Shown here piece by piece: positions 3,544 to 41,160 of a stretch of 44,804 bases of DNA. Numbering within the stretch: position 1 is the first letter of the stretch; every line of letters starts with the position of its first letter. Where the stretch lies: sequence record NC_073052.1. One strand, given 5' to 3'. The stretch is from Escherichia phage JLBYU60. The position numbers and the translations under genes were made by a program. The notes beneath the pieces were generated by a model. That model was not told the origin of the DNA. It did no database searches and saw only the letters and a program-made list of their open reading frames with translations.

Positions 3544-4630
3544 TCAATATATGGCGGATCGCATGATTCGCCGTCACATCTTCACCCAGCGCCTGAGCAA
3601 TGATCAGGCGCGAAGGGTGCTGGCTATGTGGGAGAAGTTCCGGCCCGCTTTACTTGGTAAGCTGACCGAGTTACTTGATGGCAAAAAGTCCATGAATAAC
3701 AAAGCACTTACCACACTGTTAACGCAACTCGACAAGACCGTCAAAACGGAACTGCGCACCGAGTTTAAGGCGTTGGCTGAAAGCCTTCAGGAGTTCGCCG
3801 ACACCGAGGCTGATTATCTCGCCGACACATTAACGGCAGCGATCCAGCCGGTAGTCGCCGTACCGGCGGTCGAGGTGGTTGGCGTAGTGACCGGCGCGCA
3901 GATCGCAGCAACGGCAATGAAAAACCCGTTCCAGGGCAATACCATGATGCAATGGCCTGACTCACTTTCTGAGTGGACCAGGACGCAGATCGGTAATCAG
4001 GTGCGGGCGGGATTCATCCAGGGCAAGCCAACGATGGAAATTATCGCGGACGTGAGGCGCGCGCTAGGCGGTCGTAGTGCGCAAGCCATCTCAAGCGTTG
4101 TTAAGTCCGCAGTAAACCACTATGCGGCGACTGCCCGCGAACTAATGGTAAAAGCAAATGACGATATTCTCGAAGGTCGCCAATGGTTATCTACATTGGA
4201 CACACATACTTCTCCCATGTGCCAGCTACGCGATCGCCTGTTTTATCCGGTTGATGTTACTCCCGACACCAAAGGAAAGCGCGGCGGGAAAGTGGTGGCG
4301 GGGTCGCAGTATGGCGCTGGCCCTGGCAAGCTGCATTATTGCTGCCGGTCGACGGAGACGTGGAAAGTCAAAGGCATGGAAGATTGGCCCAGTGGTAAGC
4401 GTCCGGCACTGAAGGCCGACGCGGGTCGATTGCTGAGTGAGCAGGTAGACGCGCAGACTGATTTCTTCTCATGGGTGCAGCGCCAGCCGCGCCATATCCT
4501 GGAAGAATTATATGGAGTGCAACGCGCCGACCAGATTATGCGCGGCGTGAAAGTGCCGAAGATGTTCACCGATTCTGGCGAACTGATGACTATTGCACAG
4601 CTTAAAAACCGGGGGTTATGGCGTGATTAA
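3527..4630 (+). CDS. Head morphogenesis / minor capsid protein (SPP1 gp7 / Mu F-like, putative)
   Basis: 367-aa ORF overlapping the portal stop; position between portal and scaffold is typical for this family; no motif-level confirmation. Confidence 0.5.
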   Translation: MARTINQYMADRMIRRHIFTQRLSNDQARRVLAMWEKFRPALLGKLTELLDGKKSMNNKALTTLLTQLDKTVKTELRTEFKALAESLQEFADTEADYLADTLTAAIQPVVAVPAVEVVGVVTGAQIAATAMKNPFQGNTMMQWPDSLSEWTRTQIGNQVRAGFIQGKPTMEIIADVRRALGGRSAQAISSVVKSAVNHYAATARELMVKANDDILEGRQWLSTLDTHTSPMCQLRDRLFYPVDVTPDTKGKRGGKVVAGSQYGAGPGKLHYCCRSTETWKVKGMEDWPSGKRPALKADAGRLLSEQVDAQTDFFSWVQRQPRHILEELYGVQRADQIMRGVKVPKMFTDSGELMTIAQLKNRGLWRD

Positions 4631-4952
4631 ATATGCAGCGATTGGACTGGTTATCGGTCTGGCGGTAGGATTCTGGCTAGGTGACTCCTATCGCGCTGGC
4701 GTAGTGGCGGAGGCGGCGCAAGAAGCGCAAGCCCAAGCCCAACGGCAGCAAACTAAAGTAATCGAGCGCTCCGTGCAGGCAGAACAAGCCCGCGACGTGG
4801 AATACCGGACTATCACAAAAGAGGTTGTTAAATATGTTACGCGCCCTGACCGCCCTGATTGTAGTTTTGACGCTGAGCGCGTGCGGATCAAGCAGCGTGC
4901 CGTTGATGCCGCTAACGGAGTCGGCACTGCGACCGCCGTGCAAGTTCGATAA
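4623..4952 (+). CDS. Putative i-spanin (Rz-like inner membrane spanin)
   Basis: N-terminal TM helix IGLVIGLAVGFWLG followed by A/Q/E/R-rich coiled-coil segment; probable GTG start at 4623 preceded by GGGGG RBS (six-frame ORF begins at TTG 4593); contains the o-spanin gene in the +1 frame. Confidence 0.6.
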   Translation: MIKYAAIGLVIGLAVGFWLGDSYRAGVVAEAAQEAQAQAQRQQTKVIERSVQAEQARDVEYRTITKEVVKYVTRPDRPDCSFDAERVRIKQRAVDAANGVGTATAVQVR

Positions 4953-5064
4953 CCCGTCTGCGGACCCCGACGAAGATTTGATGATTGACGTGAAAAATAT
5001 GGAATGCGGGGCGAAGCTGAGGGCGCAGGTGTTGGAGTTGCAGCAAATAATTAAGGGGCCGTAA
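4834..5064 (+). CDS. Putative o-spanin (Rz1-like outer membrane lipoprotein)
   Basis: Signal peptide with lipobox LTLSAC-G, proline-rich mature part; ATG 4834 with RBS AAGAGG; starts inside the i-spanin gene in another frame and extends beyond it (overlapped architecture). Confidence 0.7.
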   Translation: MLRALTALIVVLTLSACGSSSVPLMPLTESALRPPCKFDNPSADPDEDLMIDVKNMECGAKLRAQVLELQQIIKGP

Positions 5065-5076
5065 TGGCCCCTTTTC
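5053..5076. terminator. Bidirectional rho-independent terminator between convergent genes
   Basis: AAGGGGCC-gtaat-GGCCCCTT stem-loop followed by TTT; lies between + gene ending 5064 and - gene ending 5079. Confidence 0.6.
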
Positions 5077-5078
5077 AG

Positions 5079-5843
5079 TTAGCGAGGAATGCCGCAAATC
5101 TCGTTGAGTGTTTTCACATCCAGCGCCACCGCCGTGGATTTTGGCTTGTCCGGGTACGGGATGAATTGCTCAACTTCAGGCCATGCCTTGATCAGCTTCT
5201 TATCGGTATTGTGCATATCCAGCACGCCGGTAACAGTTAGTTTGAACGCGTCATACTTAGCCCGCAACTCACGGCGGGCCTTGTCGTTACGGTCCAGGCG
5301 CTTGCAGAAATCGTGGTCCGCAGGGTAGTCTATGCGACCGCGTGGCTTATAGATCGGCAGCGATTTTCCGTCCTTGTCCACTTCACACACCGAAGCCAGC
5401 ATAACTTCCTCGAACCCCGGTACGATATCGCCGAGATCGGGAGATAGCTTATTCATGTATTTATATTCCCAGTATCCGCGATGTACGCGGTATTGGTAAC
5501 CGTCACCGCTCAAGGACAAGGTGCGAACGTTTCCGCCTGCGTTGATTTCGAAAGTGGCGTCGTAAACGCTGCCGATACCTTTCGGGCGGTCGGTGTTATA
5601 ACTATACGTCGCCTTGTTGGTGTATACGCAAACGCCGTACATCTGCGACGGGTCATCGCCGATTGCTTCGATGCGCGCAAGTAGCTCGGCGAACGTGCGA
5701 ATGCCTTCCGGCATACAGTCAAGCGTGATTGCGTACGCCAGATCGCGTGAGTCCATCATGATTTGTTTGGCTTCGGTTGCGATTTCGTGGTCGCGCAGGA
5801 TGTTAGCCAGAATCTGATTTTTAATGTCTTTCGTCAGTCTCAT
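5079..5843 (-). CDS. Hypothetical protein (accessory gene antisense to structural block)
   Basis: 254-aa ORF with ATG and RBS GAGGA; convergent with the spanin genes across a bidirectional terminator; no recognisable motifs. Confidence 0.6.
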   Translation of the reverse strand: MRLTKDIKNQILANILRDHEIATEAKQIMMDSRDLAYAITLDCMPEGIRTFAELLARIEAIGDDPSQMYGVCVYTNKATYSYNTDRPKGIGSVYDATFEINAGGNVRTLSLSGDGYQYRVHRGYWEYKYMNKLSPDLGDIVPGFEEVMLASVCEVDKDGKSLPIYKPRGRIDYPADHDFCKRLDRNDKARRELRAKYDAFKLTVTGVLDMHNTDKKLIKAWPEVEQFIPYPDKPKSTAVALDVKTLNEICGIPR

Positions 5844-5883
5844 TTTTATGTCCTCATTTTAGGGGCTTTCGCCCCCGATTGGT

Positions 5884-6198
5884 TTAGTTGAATTTGATGT
5901 TGCCACCGGTGGAAGTTAAGCGGGCACATACAGCTTCAACGGCATCGACGCACATGAAATCGTTAAAGGCTTCGACCAGGGCGTTTATGAAAGATGCCGG
6001 AACCAGGCCGCAAGCCGGATTATCGAATGTTGCGGAGTTGATCGCCGCTTTTGCCGCTTCGGAAGCATTCATGCTCTGGCACAGATTCAGCGCTTCCGCG
6101 TTACGCATTGCGTGAAAGGTAAAGGTATTCGCTACGGTAGCTTTATTGAAACGGGCCATTGCGGCGTCTACTGGAGTTGCTACGGTCATGTTAGTCAT
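5884..6198 (-). CDS. Hypothetical protein
   Basis: 105 aa from ATG 6198 (MTNMTVATPV) with RBS AAGGA; sigma70-like promoter and TTGGTTGCA motifs immediately upstream. Confidence 0.55.
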   Translation of the reverse strand: MTNMTVATPVDAAMARFNKATVANTFTFHAMRNAEALNLCQSMNASEAAKAAINSATFDNPACGLVPASFINALVEAFNDFMCVDAVEAVCARLTSTGGNIKFN

Positions 6199-6226
6199 TT
6201 TGTTTTCCTTCATATCTCTGTTGGTG

Positions 6227-6263
6227 TGCAACCAATATAATGCAACCAACATACGCAATGCAA
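6227..6263 (-). promoter_or_regulatory. Putative sigma70-like promoter with two TTGGTTGCA elements
   Basis: On minus strand: -35 TTGCAT (6263-6258), 17-bp spacer, -10 TTATAT (6240-6235); TATATTGGTTGCACACCAACA element identical to that upstream of 40414. Confidence 0.45.
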
Positions 6264-6352
6264 GCGAATTTTGCGATTATTTCTATCGCTGATAATATTA
6301 AGGCGTGAAGTCAAGCGGGTGGCCCGCTTTGCCACAATCCCAGGGGGATAGC

Positions 6353-7054
6353 ATGAAACTTACTAAAGCAGAATATGACGCGTTGCCCGAAGGTATGAAG
6401 GCGCTTTTTGTTGCCGATGGCGATGGGTATAAATCAACGTTCATGACCGCAGAAGAAGTACAGGCGGAAATCAAGGGTCTGAAAGACAACAACGCGAAGC
6501 TGGTGAGCGAGAAGAAAGCAGAAGCTGAACGCCGCGCCGAAGCCGAGCGCCTTGCGAAAGAGAAAGAGGAAGCCGCCGCGCGCAAAAATGGTGACCTCGA
6601 AGCGATCGATAAGTCCTGGAAAGATAAGTTTGCAAAACACGAAGCAGACACATCGGGAAAAATCGAAGCCTACCGCAAGCAGATCCACGATCTAACCATC
6701 GGCAGCGCTGCCAAAGACCTGGCGTCGAAGCTGTTCGGTAAGAATGCGGGCATCATGCAACGCCACGTAATGGACCGCCTGACGCTGGAAGACGGCGAAG
6801 ACGGCAGCTTGAAAGTGCGTGTCTTGCAGGATGGCAAACCGTCCGCGCTGACTATGGAAGAGCTTGAAAAAGAGTTCCGTAATAACGCCGATTTTGCATC
6901 TGTTCTGGCTGGCACGCCCGCCGGTGGCGCGCCGAGCAAACCGACGCATGTTGTCGAAGATATGAAGTCGAAAATCACTATGGGACACAGCTTCGGCATC
7001 ACCGACCTGACGAAACAGGCGGGTGAAATCATCGCTAAAATGGGCGACGAGTAA
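6353..7054 (+). CDS. Putative scaffolding protein
   Basis: 233 aa, strongly charged coiled-coil-like region (KKAEAERRAEAERLAKEKEEAAARK), located directly upstream of the major capsid gene; start ATG 6353 with RBS GGGGGA. Confidence 0.6.
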   Translation: MKLTKAEYDALPEGMKALFVADGDGYKSTFMTAEEVQAEIKGLKDNNAKLVSEKKAEAERRAEAERLAKEKEEAAARKNGDLEAIDKSWKDKFAKHEADTSGKIEAYRKQIHDLTIGSAAKDLASKLFGKNAGIMQRHVMDRLTLEDGEDGSLKVRVLQDGKPSALTMEELEKEFRNNADFASVLAGTPAGGAPSKPTHVVEDMKSKITMGHSFGITDLTKQAGEIIAKMGDE

Positions 7055-22314: not shown

Positions 22315-22346
22315 GTATTACACCGCCCAACCAGGATTGCAACCAA
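22315..22346 (-). promoter_or_regulatory. Putative promoter for the antisense lipoprotein gene
   Basis: On minus strand: ATTGGTTGCAA containing -35 TTGCAA (22342-22337), 16-bp spacer, -10 TAATAC (22320-22315). Confidence 0.4.
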
Positions 22347-25215: not shown

Positions 25216-25277
25216 GGTTTGTCTCCTTTTAGGGGAGGCAGTATTGCCTCCCGATGTGGTTAATATAGTTGGTTGCA

Positions 25278-25748
25278 TTATTGGTTGCAAGTGAATTTTG
25301 CAAGATTCACAGAATAAATATGCGGGACCAGTTCTTCACACGCCCGTTTGATGGCGGCGATGTTCTTCGCGCAGTCGTCAATGATGACCAGTTCGTTAAC
25401 TTCTGCATAGCACACCAGGCCAAATACGGAACGGGCCTTGTACTCTGGCGGCGGCGTGTCATCAAGCATATGGCGTAAGAACAGACGACCTTTCGGGAAT
25501 CTATCCAATTGCTCTTTCGTTGACTCCCAGCAATCTGACTGGCGGTTTGACAGGTACGCAATGTCGAAGCCCTGTTTAGCGTACATGCGCAATAACGGCA
25601 GCATGTCATAATTAATGTCTTCGCGGACGTGGGCCTTATGCCACTTCGCCCAAAACGTTGATTTAGTCTTGATCCCCGGAACTAGGTCGTCGCGCACACT
25701 GCTTGACCCGTTGATAACGCCATCTAAATCGCAAATCAGTAGTTTCAT
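25278..25748 (-). CDS. HAD-superfamily phosphatase (nucleotidase / polynucleotide phosphatase-like)
   Basis: 156 aa; HAD motif I LICDLDGV and motif IV VIIDD. Confidence 0.65.
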   Translation of the reverse strand: MKLLICDLDGVINGSSSVRDDLVPGIKTKSTFWAKWHKAHVREDINYDMLPLLRMYAKQGFDIAYLSNRQSDCWESTKEQLDRFPKGRLFLRHMLDDTPPPEYKARSVFGLVCYAEVNELVIIDDCAKNIAAIKRACEELVPHIYSVNLAKFTCNQ

Positions 25749-26877: not shown

Positions 26878-26958
26878 CGTGTTGTCTCCAGGTATTAAAA
26901 AAGGCGTCCAAACCGGACACCCTTAAGATAATGCAACCAATATGATTATGCAACCAAT

Positions 26959-36873: not shown

Positions 36874-37110
36874 GGTATATCTCCGATTGGTTAAGTTTAG
36901 GTGTCGGCAGTTAACTTCGTCGGTGGCCTTAACATATTGCCAGGTTACGCGTTCTCCCGTTCGGGTAGTGGACCTGGTTATATAATCACGGTTGGGAATC
37001 CTGACACTTCGATCCGGCCCCTGCGGTGCCCCTCTCCAGTTTGCGTCCTGCATCCTGTCGACGGAGTGAATGATAGATTGGTTGCAGGATGGGTGTCAAC
37101 AACTAATTTC

Positions 37111-40350: not shown

Positions 40351-40393
40351 TATTGGTTGCACCCTGCCTGGCGCCCTGCTATATTGGTTGCAC
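40351..40393 (+). promoter_or_regulatory. Putative sigma70-like promoter with duplicated TATTGGTTGCAC elements
   Basis: -35 TTGCAC (40357-40362), 17-bp spacer, -10 TATATT (40380-40385) preceded by TG-like extension; second TTGGTTGCACACCAA copy spans the predicted start site; gene starts at 40414. Confidence 0.5.
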
Positions 40394-40728: not shown

Positions 40729-41160
40729 ATGACCCGTAGACGCGCAAAACAGCTTTCGTGGCATATTCCCCTGCATTGCATACGAATATGGGCTAAGAAT
40801 GCGAATGTGGGGGATTCTGTATTCTGGTGTTATCGCGACGACGTAAAGCCACTGACGCAGACTCGCTACTTGCACCTGTTCGCAGCAAAGCACGGATTCC
40901 AGGTGCGGACTTCCTTGCAACCAATGGGGATCCGTATTACATTACGCCGAAAGCCCGCCATTGAGCGGGTAGGCAAACACTGGAGACTGAGCAAAATGAA
41001 CAAGCAACCTGAACGCTGGCGGAGTAAGGCCACGCGACTGACTTACTTCGTGACAGAAGAAGCAAACGGCAACGTGACTATTTCACACCCTAAGTGTGGT
41101 ACTCGCCGCACTATCTCGCGCCTCACATTAGTTCGTAACTACAGGAGATTGACAGAATGA
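40729..41160 (+). CDS. Hypothetical basic protein
   Basis: 143-aa ORF, arginine-rich; RBS-like GAGG upstream; no motifs. Confidence 0.5.
   Translation: MTRRRAKQLSWHIPLHCIRIWAKNANVGDSVFWCYRDDVKPLTQTRYLHLFAAKHGFQVRTSLQPMGIRITLRRKPAIERVGKHWRLSKMNKQPERWRSKATRLTYFVTEEANGNVTISHPKCGTRRTISRLTLVRNYRRLTE

Follow-up and report, generated by a model that had tools for sequence, protein, structure and literature searches.

The closest described system to the locus analysed here is the nmad5 gene of Dhillonvirus, in which a single substitution allows phages to escape the defence system Tmn. Working with the Dhillonviruses SM_A8 and SM_S22, Yamashita et al. (2025, Commun Biol 8:290; PMC11846954) found nmad5 K216E in Tmn escape mutants of SM_A8 and K296E in those of SM_S22; in SM_S22, reverting K296E restored Tmn sensitivity, and K296E introduced alone led to escape. 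An SM_S22 phage deleted for nmad5 is viable, forms plaques and is still Tmn-sensitive, and attempts to clone SM_S22 nmad5 failed, apparently owing to toxicity (PMC11846954). In phage T2, Tmn is activated by direct binding of RIIB, with a single residue deciding activation, and binding of RIIB is separable from activation (2026 preprint, PMC13001434). We analysed the corresponding locus of Escherichia phage JLBYU60 (NC_073052.1), whose record of 44,804 nucleotides (nt), hereafter the window, is the entire genome of ~44.8 kb and begins just upstream of the small terminase gene. Two minus-strand genes interrupt its head gene block. The larger, at 5079–5843, is the already published Dhillonvirus nmad5, so the locus is already in the literature; the smaller, at 5884–6198, is an uncharacterised, swappable neighbour of it. 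We think it reasonably probable that the two form a non-structural accessory operon in a hypervariable slot, with Nmad5 a non-catalytic, early, partner-binding protein and the smaller gene independent of it.

The 254-amino-acid (aa) product of nmad5 is a full-length match to the Pfam family Nmad5 (“nucleotide modification associated domain 5”, PF18757; E = 7.6e-59, 199.7 bits against a cut-off of 27), with residues 1–253 covering profile positions 1–206 of 206, and it also belongs to phrog_1965. An earlier note on this DNA, made by a model from the letters alone, had recognised no motif in either gene, which is wrong for the larger one. The protein is 90% identical, without gaps, to SM_A8 CDS7, and K216 is conserved, being invariant in 38 Dhillonvirus sequences; the product of the smaller gene is 99% identical to SM_A8 CDS8, and the window carries the SM_A8-type arrangement of the locus. 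SM_A8 CDS7 and SM_S22 CDS6 are orthologous to the gene in the window and lie at the equivalent place in their genomes, which Yamashita et al. call “near the capsid gene” (PMC11846954), with nothing substantive that differs.

In SM_S22, nmad5 is annotated as encoding 334 aa (SM_S22 locus 1501–2505) and extends ~200 nt into the opposite-strand scaffold gene. The conserved start MRLTKDIK gives 254 aa in SM_S22 too, so that K296E and K216E are the same residue. Judged by this start, the SM_S22 gene model is over-extended, and the reported N-terminal truncation of SM_A8 is an artefact of annotation. If a deletion followed the 334-aa model, it would encroach on the promoter or the start of the scaffold gene. 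We conclude that nmad5 is not a simple anti-defence gene, because its deletion leaves Tmn sensitivity unchanged and only the K216E allele escapes. The published anti-Tmn is another gene, ORF35 of SM_S22, reported to be absent from SM_A8 (PMC11846954); as an identity for either gene here it was set aside as different by description, its sequence not having been compared with the window. Ksap1 of SECphi18, the trigger of KpAvs2 (PMC11564622), resembles nmad5 in being a dispensable, genus-restricted Dhillonvirus protein that sets defence sensitivity, but it was likewise rejected as an identity for either gene, being smaller (74 aa) and encoded between methyltransferase and phosphatase genes at another locus. 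PADLOC returned no match for either protein.

Across a divergent set of Nmad5 sequences, drawn from phage M6, the lambdoid phage mEp235, Bas97, the Vibrio phage Athena1 and metagenomic phages, the invariant residues are M1, R2, L3, G104, T213, L217, W221, P222, P229, L246 and N247. The family thus keeps an N-terminal M..RL motif and a C-terminal T-x3-L-x3-WP ... LN segment, and no Asp, Glu, His, Cys, Ser or Lys is invariant in the alignment, a pattern more in keeping with a binding or adaptor function than with catalysis. The AlphaFold model of Nmad5 was computed with an alignment of 28 sequences; it is of moderate quality (pLDDT 69.8, pTM 0.70) and shows an N-terminal helical hairpin, a small β sheet and a long C-terminal helix. 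A Foldseek search of this model against the PDB returned nothing at E ≤ 0.001, and a profile search against the PDB gave 0 matches.

The distant homologues are encoded in early regions, among replication or recombination genes. In mEp235, Nmad5 directly follows N and Nun in the pL operon of that lambdoid phage; in Bas97 it lies between helicase and resolvase genes, and in Athena1 before the gene for replication protein O. In two metagenomic phage types it stands beside a divergent helix-turn-helix (HTH) repressor gene and is followed by genes for a DUF2800 exonuclease, an Enc34/gp2.5-type single-stranded DNA-binding protein and PolA. No second Nmad5 paralogue was found in the replication module of the window, the position used in distant phages. 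At two distant loci, L003 and L004, the Nmad5 operons are divergent from the HTH repressor gene, and a conserved 156–158-aa gene of no known family (L003 5471–5941, L004 5477–5953) lies immediately upstream of Nmad5; it is first in the operon in L004 and preceded by a 267-aa gene in L003, and it is unrelated to the family of the smaller gene in the window.

Nmad domains were reportedly defined by Iyer and colleagues in 2013 and named for the neighbourhood of nucleotide- or base-modification enzymes. No such neighbourhood is present here, where the neighbours are spanin and scaffold genes, although this is a matter of context rather than a sequence-family criterion. The Nmad5 of the Pseudomonas phages M6 and SN1 belongs to the same Pfam family and has the same N-terminal RL and C-terminal T-x3-L-x3-WP...LN features at ~29% identity, but its gene lies among thymidylate-synthase-like, kinase, aGPT-Pplase, radical S-adenosylmethionine and pyridoxal-phosphate genes. 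This cassette, the name of the Pfam family and the view of Yamashita et al., who take Nmad5 as base-modifying (PMC11846954), all speak for an enzyme or an essential subunit of one, with Tmn responding to the modification state of the phage DNA. The absence of invariant catalytic-type residues, and of any fold or sequence relative among solved structures, argues otherwise, as do those homologues, in lambdoid and other phages, whose surroundings contain no hypermodification genes. Moreover, the annotation of the 98.9%-identical Zumzum genome shows no cassette of the hydroxymethylase, aGPT-Pplase or kinase kind, and Dhillonviruses are comparatively sensitive to type I and II restriction-modification. 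Finally, deletion of nmad5 leaves Tmn sensitivity as it was (PMC11846954), and the activation of Tmn in T2 proceeds by direct protein binding (PMC13001434). We consider base modification by Nmad5 unlikely, and the label “DNA modification enzyme” unsupported.

The composition of the slot varies among relatives. The region 4600–6700 matches 153 phage records, nearly all of them Escherichia or Shigella Dhillonvirus (HK578-like virulent siphophages), with Zumzum the best match at 98.9% identity. Relatives were counted as the ~157 records that have the Dhillonvirus capsid gene at 80% nucleotide identity or above. Among these, nmad5 is present in 146 (tblastn, at least 60% identity) and full length in ~143, whereas only 59 have the 104-aa product of the smaller gene at 90% identity or above; both genes are covered in only 53, and ~85 have nmad5 without the smaller gene. 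In SM_S22, nmad5 directly follows the putative promoter, with no upstream gene; in EP23 it is preceded by a 170-aa phrog_3007 (“RusA-like”) gene and in Zar3M by a 135-aa gene without an assigned function. In HK578, where an unrelated 140-aa gene lies upstream, only the first four codons of nmad5 are left, while JL1 has nmad5 cut to ~74 aa (JL1 1738–1962) and retains the 104-aa gene. In the metagenomic protein P0054, an in-frame deletion has fused an N-terminal half from the 104-aa family to the last ~40 residues of Nmad5. These are three independent natural deletions of nmad5; the HK578 remnant (~1990–2060) keeps only ATGAGACTGACG of the gene, fused to the terminator.

Where nmad5 or the 104-aa gene varies (SM_S22, HK578 and JL1), the flanks, promoter block and terminator are conserved. 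Comparison of these sequences indicates that the slot is variable, that its two genes are independent of each other and that nmad5 has been lost repeatedly. The variable presence that the earlier note had suggested looking for is thus evident, with no intact nmad5 in HK578 and JL1 and no 104-aa gene in SM_S22, and together with the conserved flanks it supports the proposal of accessory cargo, in what would be a separate transcription unit. A functional pair is not borne out, since most relatives have nmad5 without the 104-aa gene and homologues of the latter occur elsewhere without Nmad5. The locus can be compared with the morons of lambdoid phages, which are said, in the account of Juhala, Hendrix and colleagues from 2000, to be additional genes set between conserved ones and equipped with a promoter and a terminator of their own. 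The operon here is similarly inserted between genes that are closer together in some relatives, would form its own transcription unit and has a slightly lower GC content (nmad5 0.527, 104-aa gene 0.508; whole genome 0.545, portal and capsid genes 0.56–0.58). In contrast to the morons, it belongs to a virulent phage, so that no prophage-expressed host benefit applies, and its terminator is common to the neighbouring operon.

Both minus-strand open reading frames (ORFs) are, on comparative evidence, genuine coding genes, because pairwise ratios of nonsynonymous to synonymous substitution rates (dN/dS) for nmad5 are 0.06–0.19 among four phages, indicating purifying selection, and because the length of the 104-aa protein is kept at 57–64% identity in unrelated phage groups. 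Within nmad5, dN/dS is 0.21 in the variable middle (residues 51–135) and 0.06–0.08 at both ends. The earlier note gave the right coordinates and strand for both genes, but its figure of 105 aa for the second counted the stop codon: the ORF at 5884–6198 has 105 codons including the stop and encodes 104 aa. All homologues have the start MTNMTV in common, and a longer entry in the ORF list, 5884–6258, is merely the longest TTG-started ORF rather than the real extent of the gene.

The 104-aa protein is acidic (pI 5.1) and belongs to phrog_24635 (E = 1.5e-68), a phrog of unknown function; it has no match in Pfam, NCBIfam, PADLOC or the PDB. Within its family the motif DNPACGLVP is invariant, as are three cysteines. 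An exhaustive hidden Markov model (HMM) profile search over 1.84 billion representative proteins returned four clusters at E ≤ 0.001, namely P0074, P0075 (147 aa), the P0054 deletion fusion and a 2421-aa protein. The last was rejected by eye as a low-complexity tandem-repeat match, leaving only three genuine clusters. Homologues elsewhere are found in the Pantoea phage AAM37 (64% identity) and in large (~150 kb) myophages (57–61%), one of which, RPN242, is classified in the Ackermannviridae. At the two loci examined, those of AAM37 and RPN242, the homologue lies among early or replication genes with no Nmad5 nearby. We regard the 104-aa protein, one of at least four alternatives at its position, as a small, independent accessory protein that is exchanged horizontally and probably targets the host or a defence system.

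That nmad5 and the 104-aa gene are adjacent and co-oriented, 40 nt apart behind one putative promoter, and that nmad5 alone could not be cloned (PMC11846954), might suggest a toxin–antidote or otherwise obligate pair, in which the upstream protein neutralises or regulates a toxic Nmad5. The ~85 records without the 104-aa gene, however, include SM_S22, the very phage whose nmad5 resisted cloning, and in HK578, EP23 and Zar3M the corresponding upstream place is taken by unrelated genes. The dissociation also holds outside the genus: the AAM37 and Ackermannviridae homologues have no Nmad5 nearby, and no 104-aa homologue was found at the distant Nmad5 loci. We rejected such a pair on the co-occurrence counts and regard it as quite improbable.

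The two genes lie within a + strand series that comprises, on the 5′ side, terminase, portal and head morphogenesis genes and an overlapping Rz/Rz1-like spanin pair and, on the 3′ side, the scaffold gene followed by that of the major capsid protein; the gap between the 104-aa gene and the scaffold gene is 155 nt. The interruption of a co-linear packaging and head series, as first described for this DNA, is therefore real. This position between head morphogenesis and scaffold genes, and a scaffold mutation that one Tmn escape mutant also had (PMC11846954), could be taken to indicate a role in head assembly or in the virion. Yet the genes run on the opposite strand and have a terminator of their own, deletions occur in nature and the engineered nmad5 deletion is viable (PMC11846954), and the distant homologues of Nmad5 are in early replication modules. 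In the proteome of a cell-free lysate of the Dhillonvirus EE09, 24 phage proteins were detected, among them 16 of 17 annotated structural proteins, and none of the 24 (Table 1 of that data set) is a 254-aa protein of the size of Nmad5; EE09 is without the 104-aa gene. A head or virion role thus has next to nothing to recommend it, and we conclude from the viable deletion and the EE09 proteome that Nmad5 is non-structural and the operon as a whole probably so. The findings that were to have overturned the idea of accessory cargo, a place in the virion or strict conservation, did not emerge, as Nmad5 is missing from the EE09 proteome and the genes are variably present.

The operon is bounded downstream by a hairpin at 5053–5073, with an 8-bp, GC-rich stem, able to fold on either strand (−18.2 and −17.1 kcal/mol, z ~−3), and a U-rich tail on each side. 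Our terminator scan scored it on the minus strand only, and the HK578 record annotates the same site as a terminator on both strands; the bidirectional terminator of the earlier note is therefore well founded, as a two-way intrinsic terminator common to the + strand spanin unit and the minus-strand nmad5 operon. Between the two genes, a GC-rich minus-strand hairpin without a U tract, GGGGGCGAAAGCCCC (5862–5875; −12.4 kcal/mol, z −2.6), is also conserved in JL1 and HK578 and forms the 3′ boundary of the swappable upstream gene in the relatives examined.

On the other side of the operon, the minus strand of the gap to the scaffold gene reads TTGCAT (6263–6258), an 18-nt spacer and TATATT (6239–6234), which together make 8 of 12 consensus matches, with a predicted transcription start near 6227. 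Two copies of a 9-mer, TTGGTTGCA, lie at 6241–6249 and 6227–6235 on the same strand, one on each side of the −10 hexamer. We consider this block (6227–6263) a plausible sigma-70-type promoter of the nmad5 operon. In SM_S22, HK578 and JL1 the same block precedes the first gene of the slot, whichever that is, and the identical string TATATTGGTTGCACACCAACA is also found upstream of gene 40414(+). JL1 lacks one TTGGTTGCA copy and the TATATT −10 hexamer. Back to back with this promoter is a candidate divergent + strand promoter for scaffold and capsid (6271–6299; TTGCGA, a 16–17-nt spacer, and TAATAT or AATATT), which was read directly from the sequence and not flagged by the standard scan. The predicted 5′ leader of the scaffold gene, whose ATG is at 6353, contains a conserved hairpin without a U tract, AAGCGGG-TGG-CCCGCTT (6313–6329, + strand), ~24 nt ahead of that start codon.

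Exact copies of TTGGTTGCA number 11 in the window against 0.34 expected, and 10 of the 11 are intergenic when their contexts are read by eye. Most of the sites have a relaxed sigma-70-like promoter facing the next gene, with none found by these criteria at 37078. The 9-mer could serve either as a promoter element used across the genus or as the operator of a regulator. The sites, often paired, are at 6227–6249, 22338–22346, 25269–25289, 26932–26957, 37078–37086, 40353–40392 and 40916–40924; at most of them TTGGTTGCA supplies a TTGCAx −35 or brackets a TATATT −10, and the second copy is often within a near-palindrome, TTGGTTGCACACCAA. The sequence ATCTTAAGGG, the 5′ cohesive end of EE09 as predicted by PhageTerm (PMC10673088), occurs once in the window, on the minus strand at 26920–26929 and 2 nt from a TTGGTTGCA copy, which places a putative cos site inside a motif-bearing promoter region.

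Considered together, these observations are consistent with the following model. Transcription would start at a host-type promoter that has a copy of the genus-wide 9-mer TTGGTTGCA on either side of its −10, pass through the swappable first gene, here that of the 104-aa protein, and then nmad5, and stop at the two-way terminator common to the spanin genes. Early timing of the operon is inferred, because the promoter motif is shared and distant Nmad5 homologues occupy early-operon positions. Nmad5 itself would be a non-catalytic early protein that binds a replication or recombination partner, or a host partner, through protein or DNA contacts, and the contact may be made by the invariant N-terminal basic segment MRLTKDIK and the C-terminal T-x3-L-x3-WP...LN segment. 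K216 would then be on an interaction surface, and K216E would be a gain- or change-of-function allele.

Nmad5 and T2 RIIB are alike in being non-structural and replication-linked proteins in which a single amino-acid change decides the outcome with Tmn (PMC13001434). They differ in having no sequence relationship, and loss of RIIB function escapes Tmn whereas deletion of nmad5 reportedly does not. A bolder version of our model, possible in our view but doubtful, would hold that Nmad5 is misnamed and is, instead of a base-modification factor, a widespread immediate-early adaptor of phage replication and recombination modules that acts as a ligand of Tmn or a modulator of the ligand, with K216 on the contact surface, and that the slot upstream is a counter-defence hot spot which includes the 104-aa Cys-motif protein. 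In that case, the cytosolic arms of the Tmn membrane NTPase would recognise Nmad5 in much the same way as T2 RIIB.

Several points weigh against the model of an early operon with a partner-binding Nmad5. That the nmad5 deletion does not escape Tmn sits ill with it, and either a change-of-function allele or a second trigger is needed. Given the moderate quality of the Nmad5 model, a distant enzymatic fold could have been missed, and the location of Nmad5 inside a thymidine-hypermodification cluster, which is peculiar to M6-like phages, is compatible with a role in DNA modification. The AlphaFold model of the 104-aa protein, for which a helical fold is predicted, is unreliable (pLDDT 50.6) and too poor for a structure search. 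Usable data on transcript timing in Dhillonvirus were not found in the literature searched. The standard promoter scan called none at 6227–6263, where an 8/12 match is below its threshold; thus, of the operon's own promoter with sequence elements, as proposed in the earlier note, the TTGGTTGCA pair and the conservation of the block are firm and the promoter is plausible only.

Elsewhere around the operon, the overlapping Rz/Rz1-like spanin genes (4593–4952 and 4834–5064, + strand; the o-spanin has the lipobox LSAC) close the packaging and head-morphogenesis unit. They lie ~6 kb round the genome from the holin and endolysin genes annotated in relatives (here roughly 42.3–43.3 kb), and with them the head block is not purely structural even without the nmad5 operon. 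Zumzum CDS0023, a 41-codon hypothetical ORF, corresponds to 6210–6335 on the minus strand of the window. It spans the divergent promoter region, shares sequence with the true start region of the 104-aa gene and is unlikely to be a gene. Scans of the window for Rfam families and tRNAs found nothing.

The earlier reading of independently transcribed accessory cargo was largely right. The locus is relevant to phage therapy and to defence biology, in that K216 alone decides whether Tmn stops a Dhillonvirus, and natural isolates vary both in carriage of nmad5 and in the small gene upstream of it. To the published picture we add the lack of enzyme-like features in Nmad5, its early-operon homes elsewhere and the origin of the “N-terminal truncation” in annotation. 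The 104-aa protein and the alternative genes of the slot are cheap candidates for defence-system screens. For Nmad5, the question shifts from a DNA modification sensed by Tmn to a protein interaction made by Nmad5.

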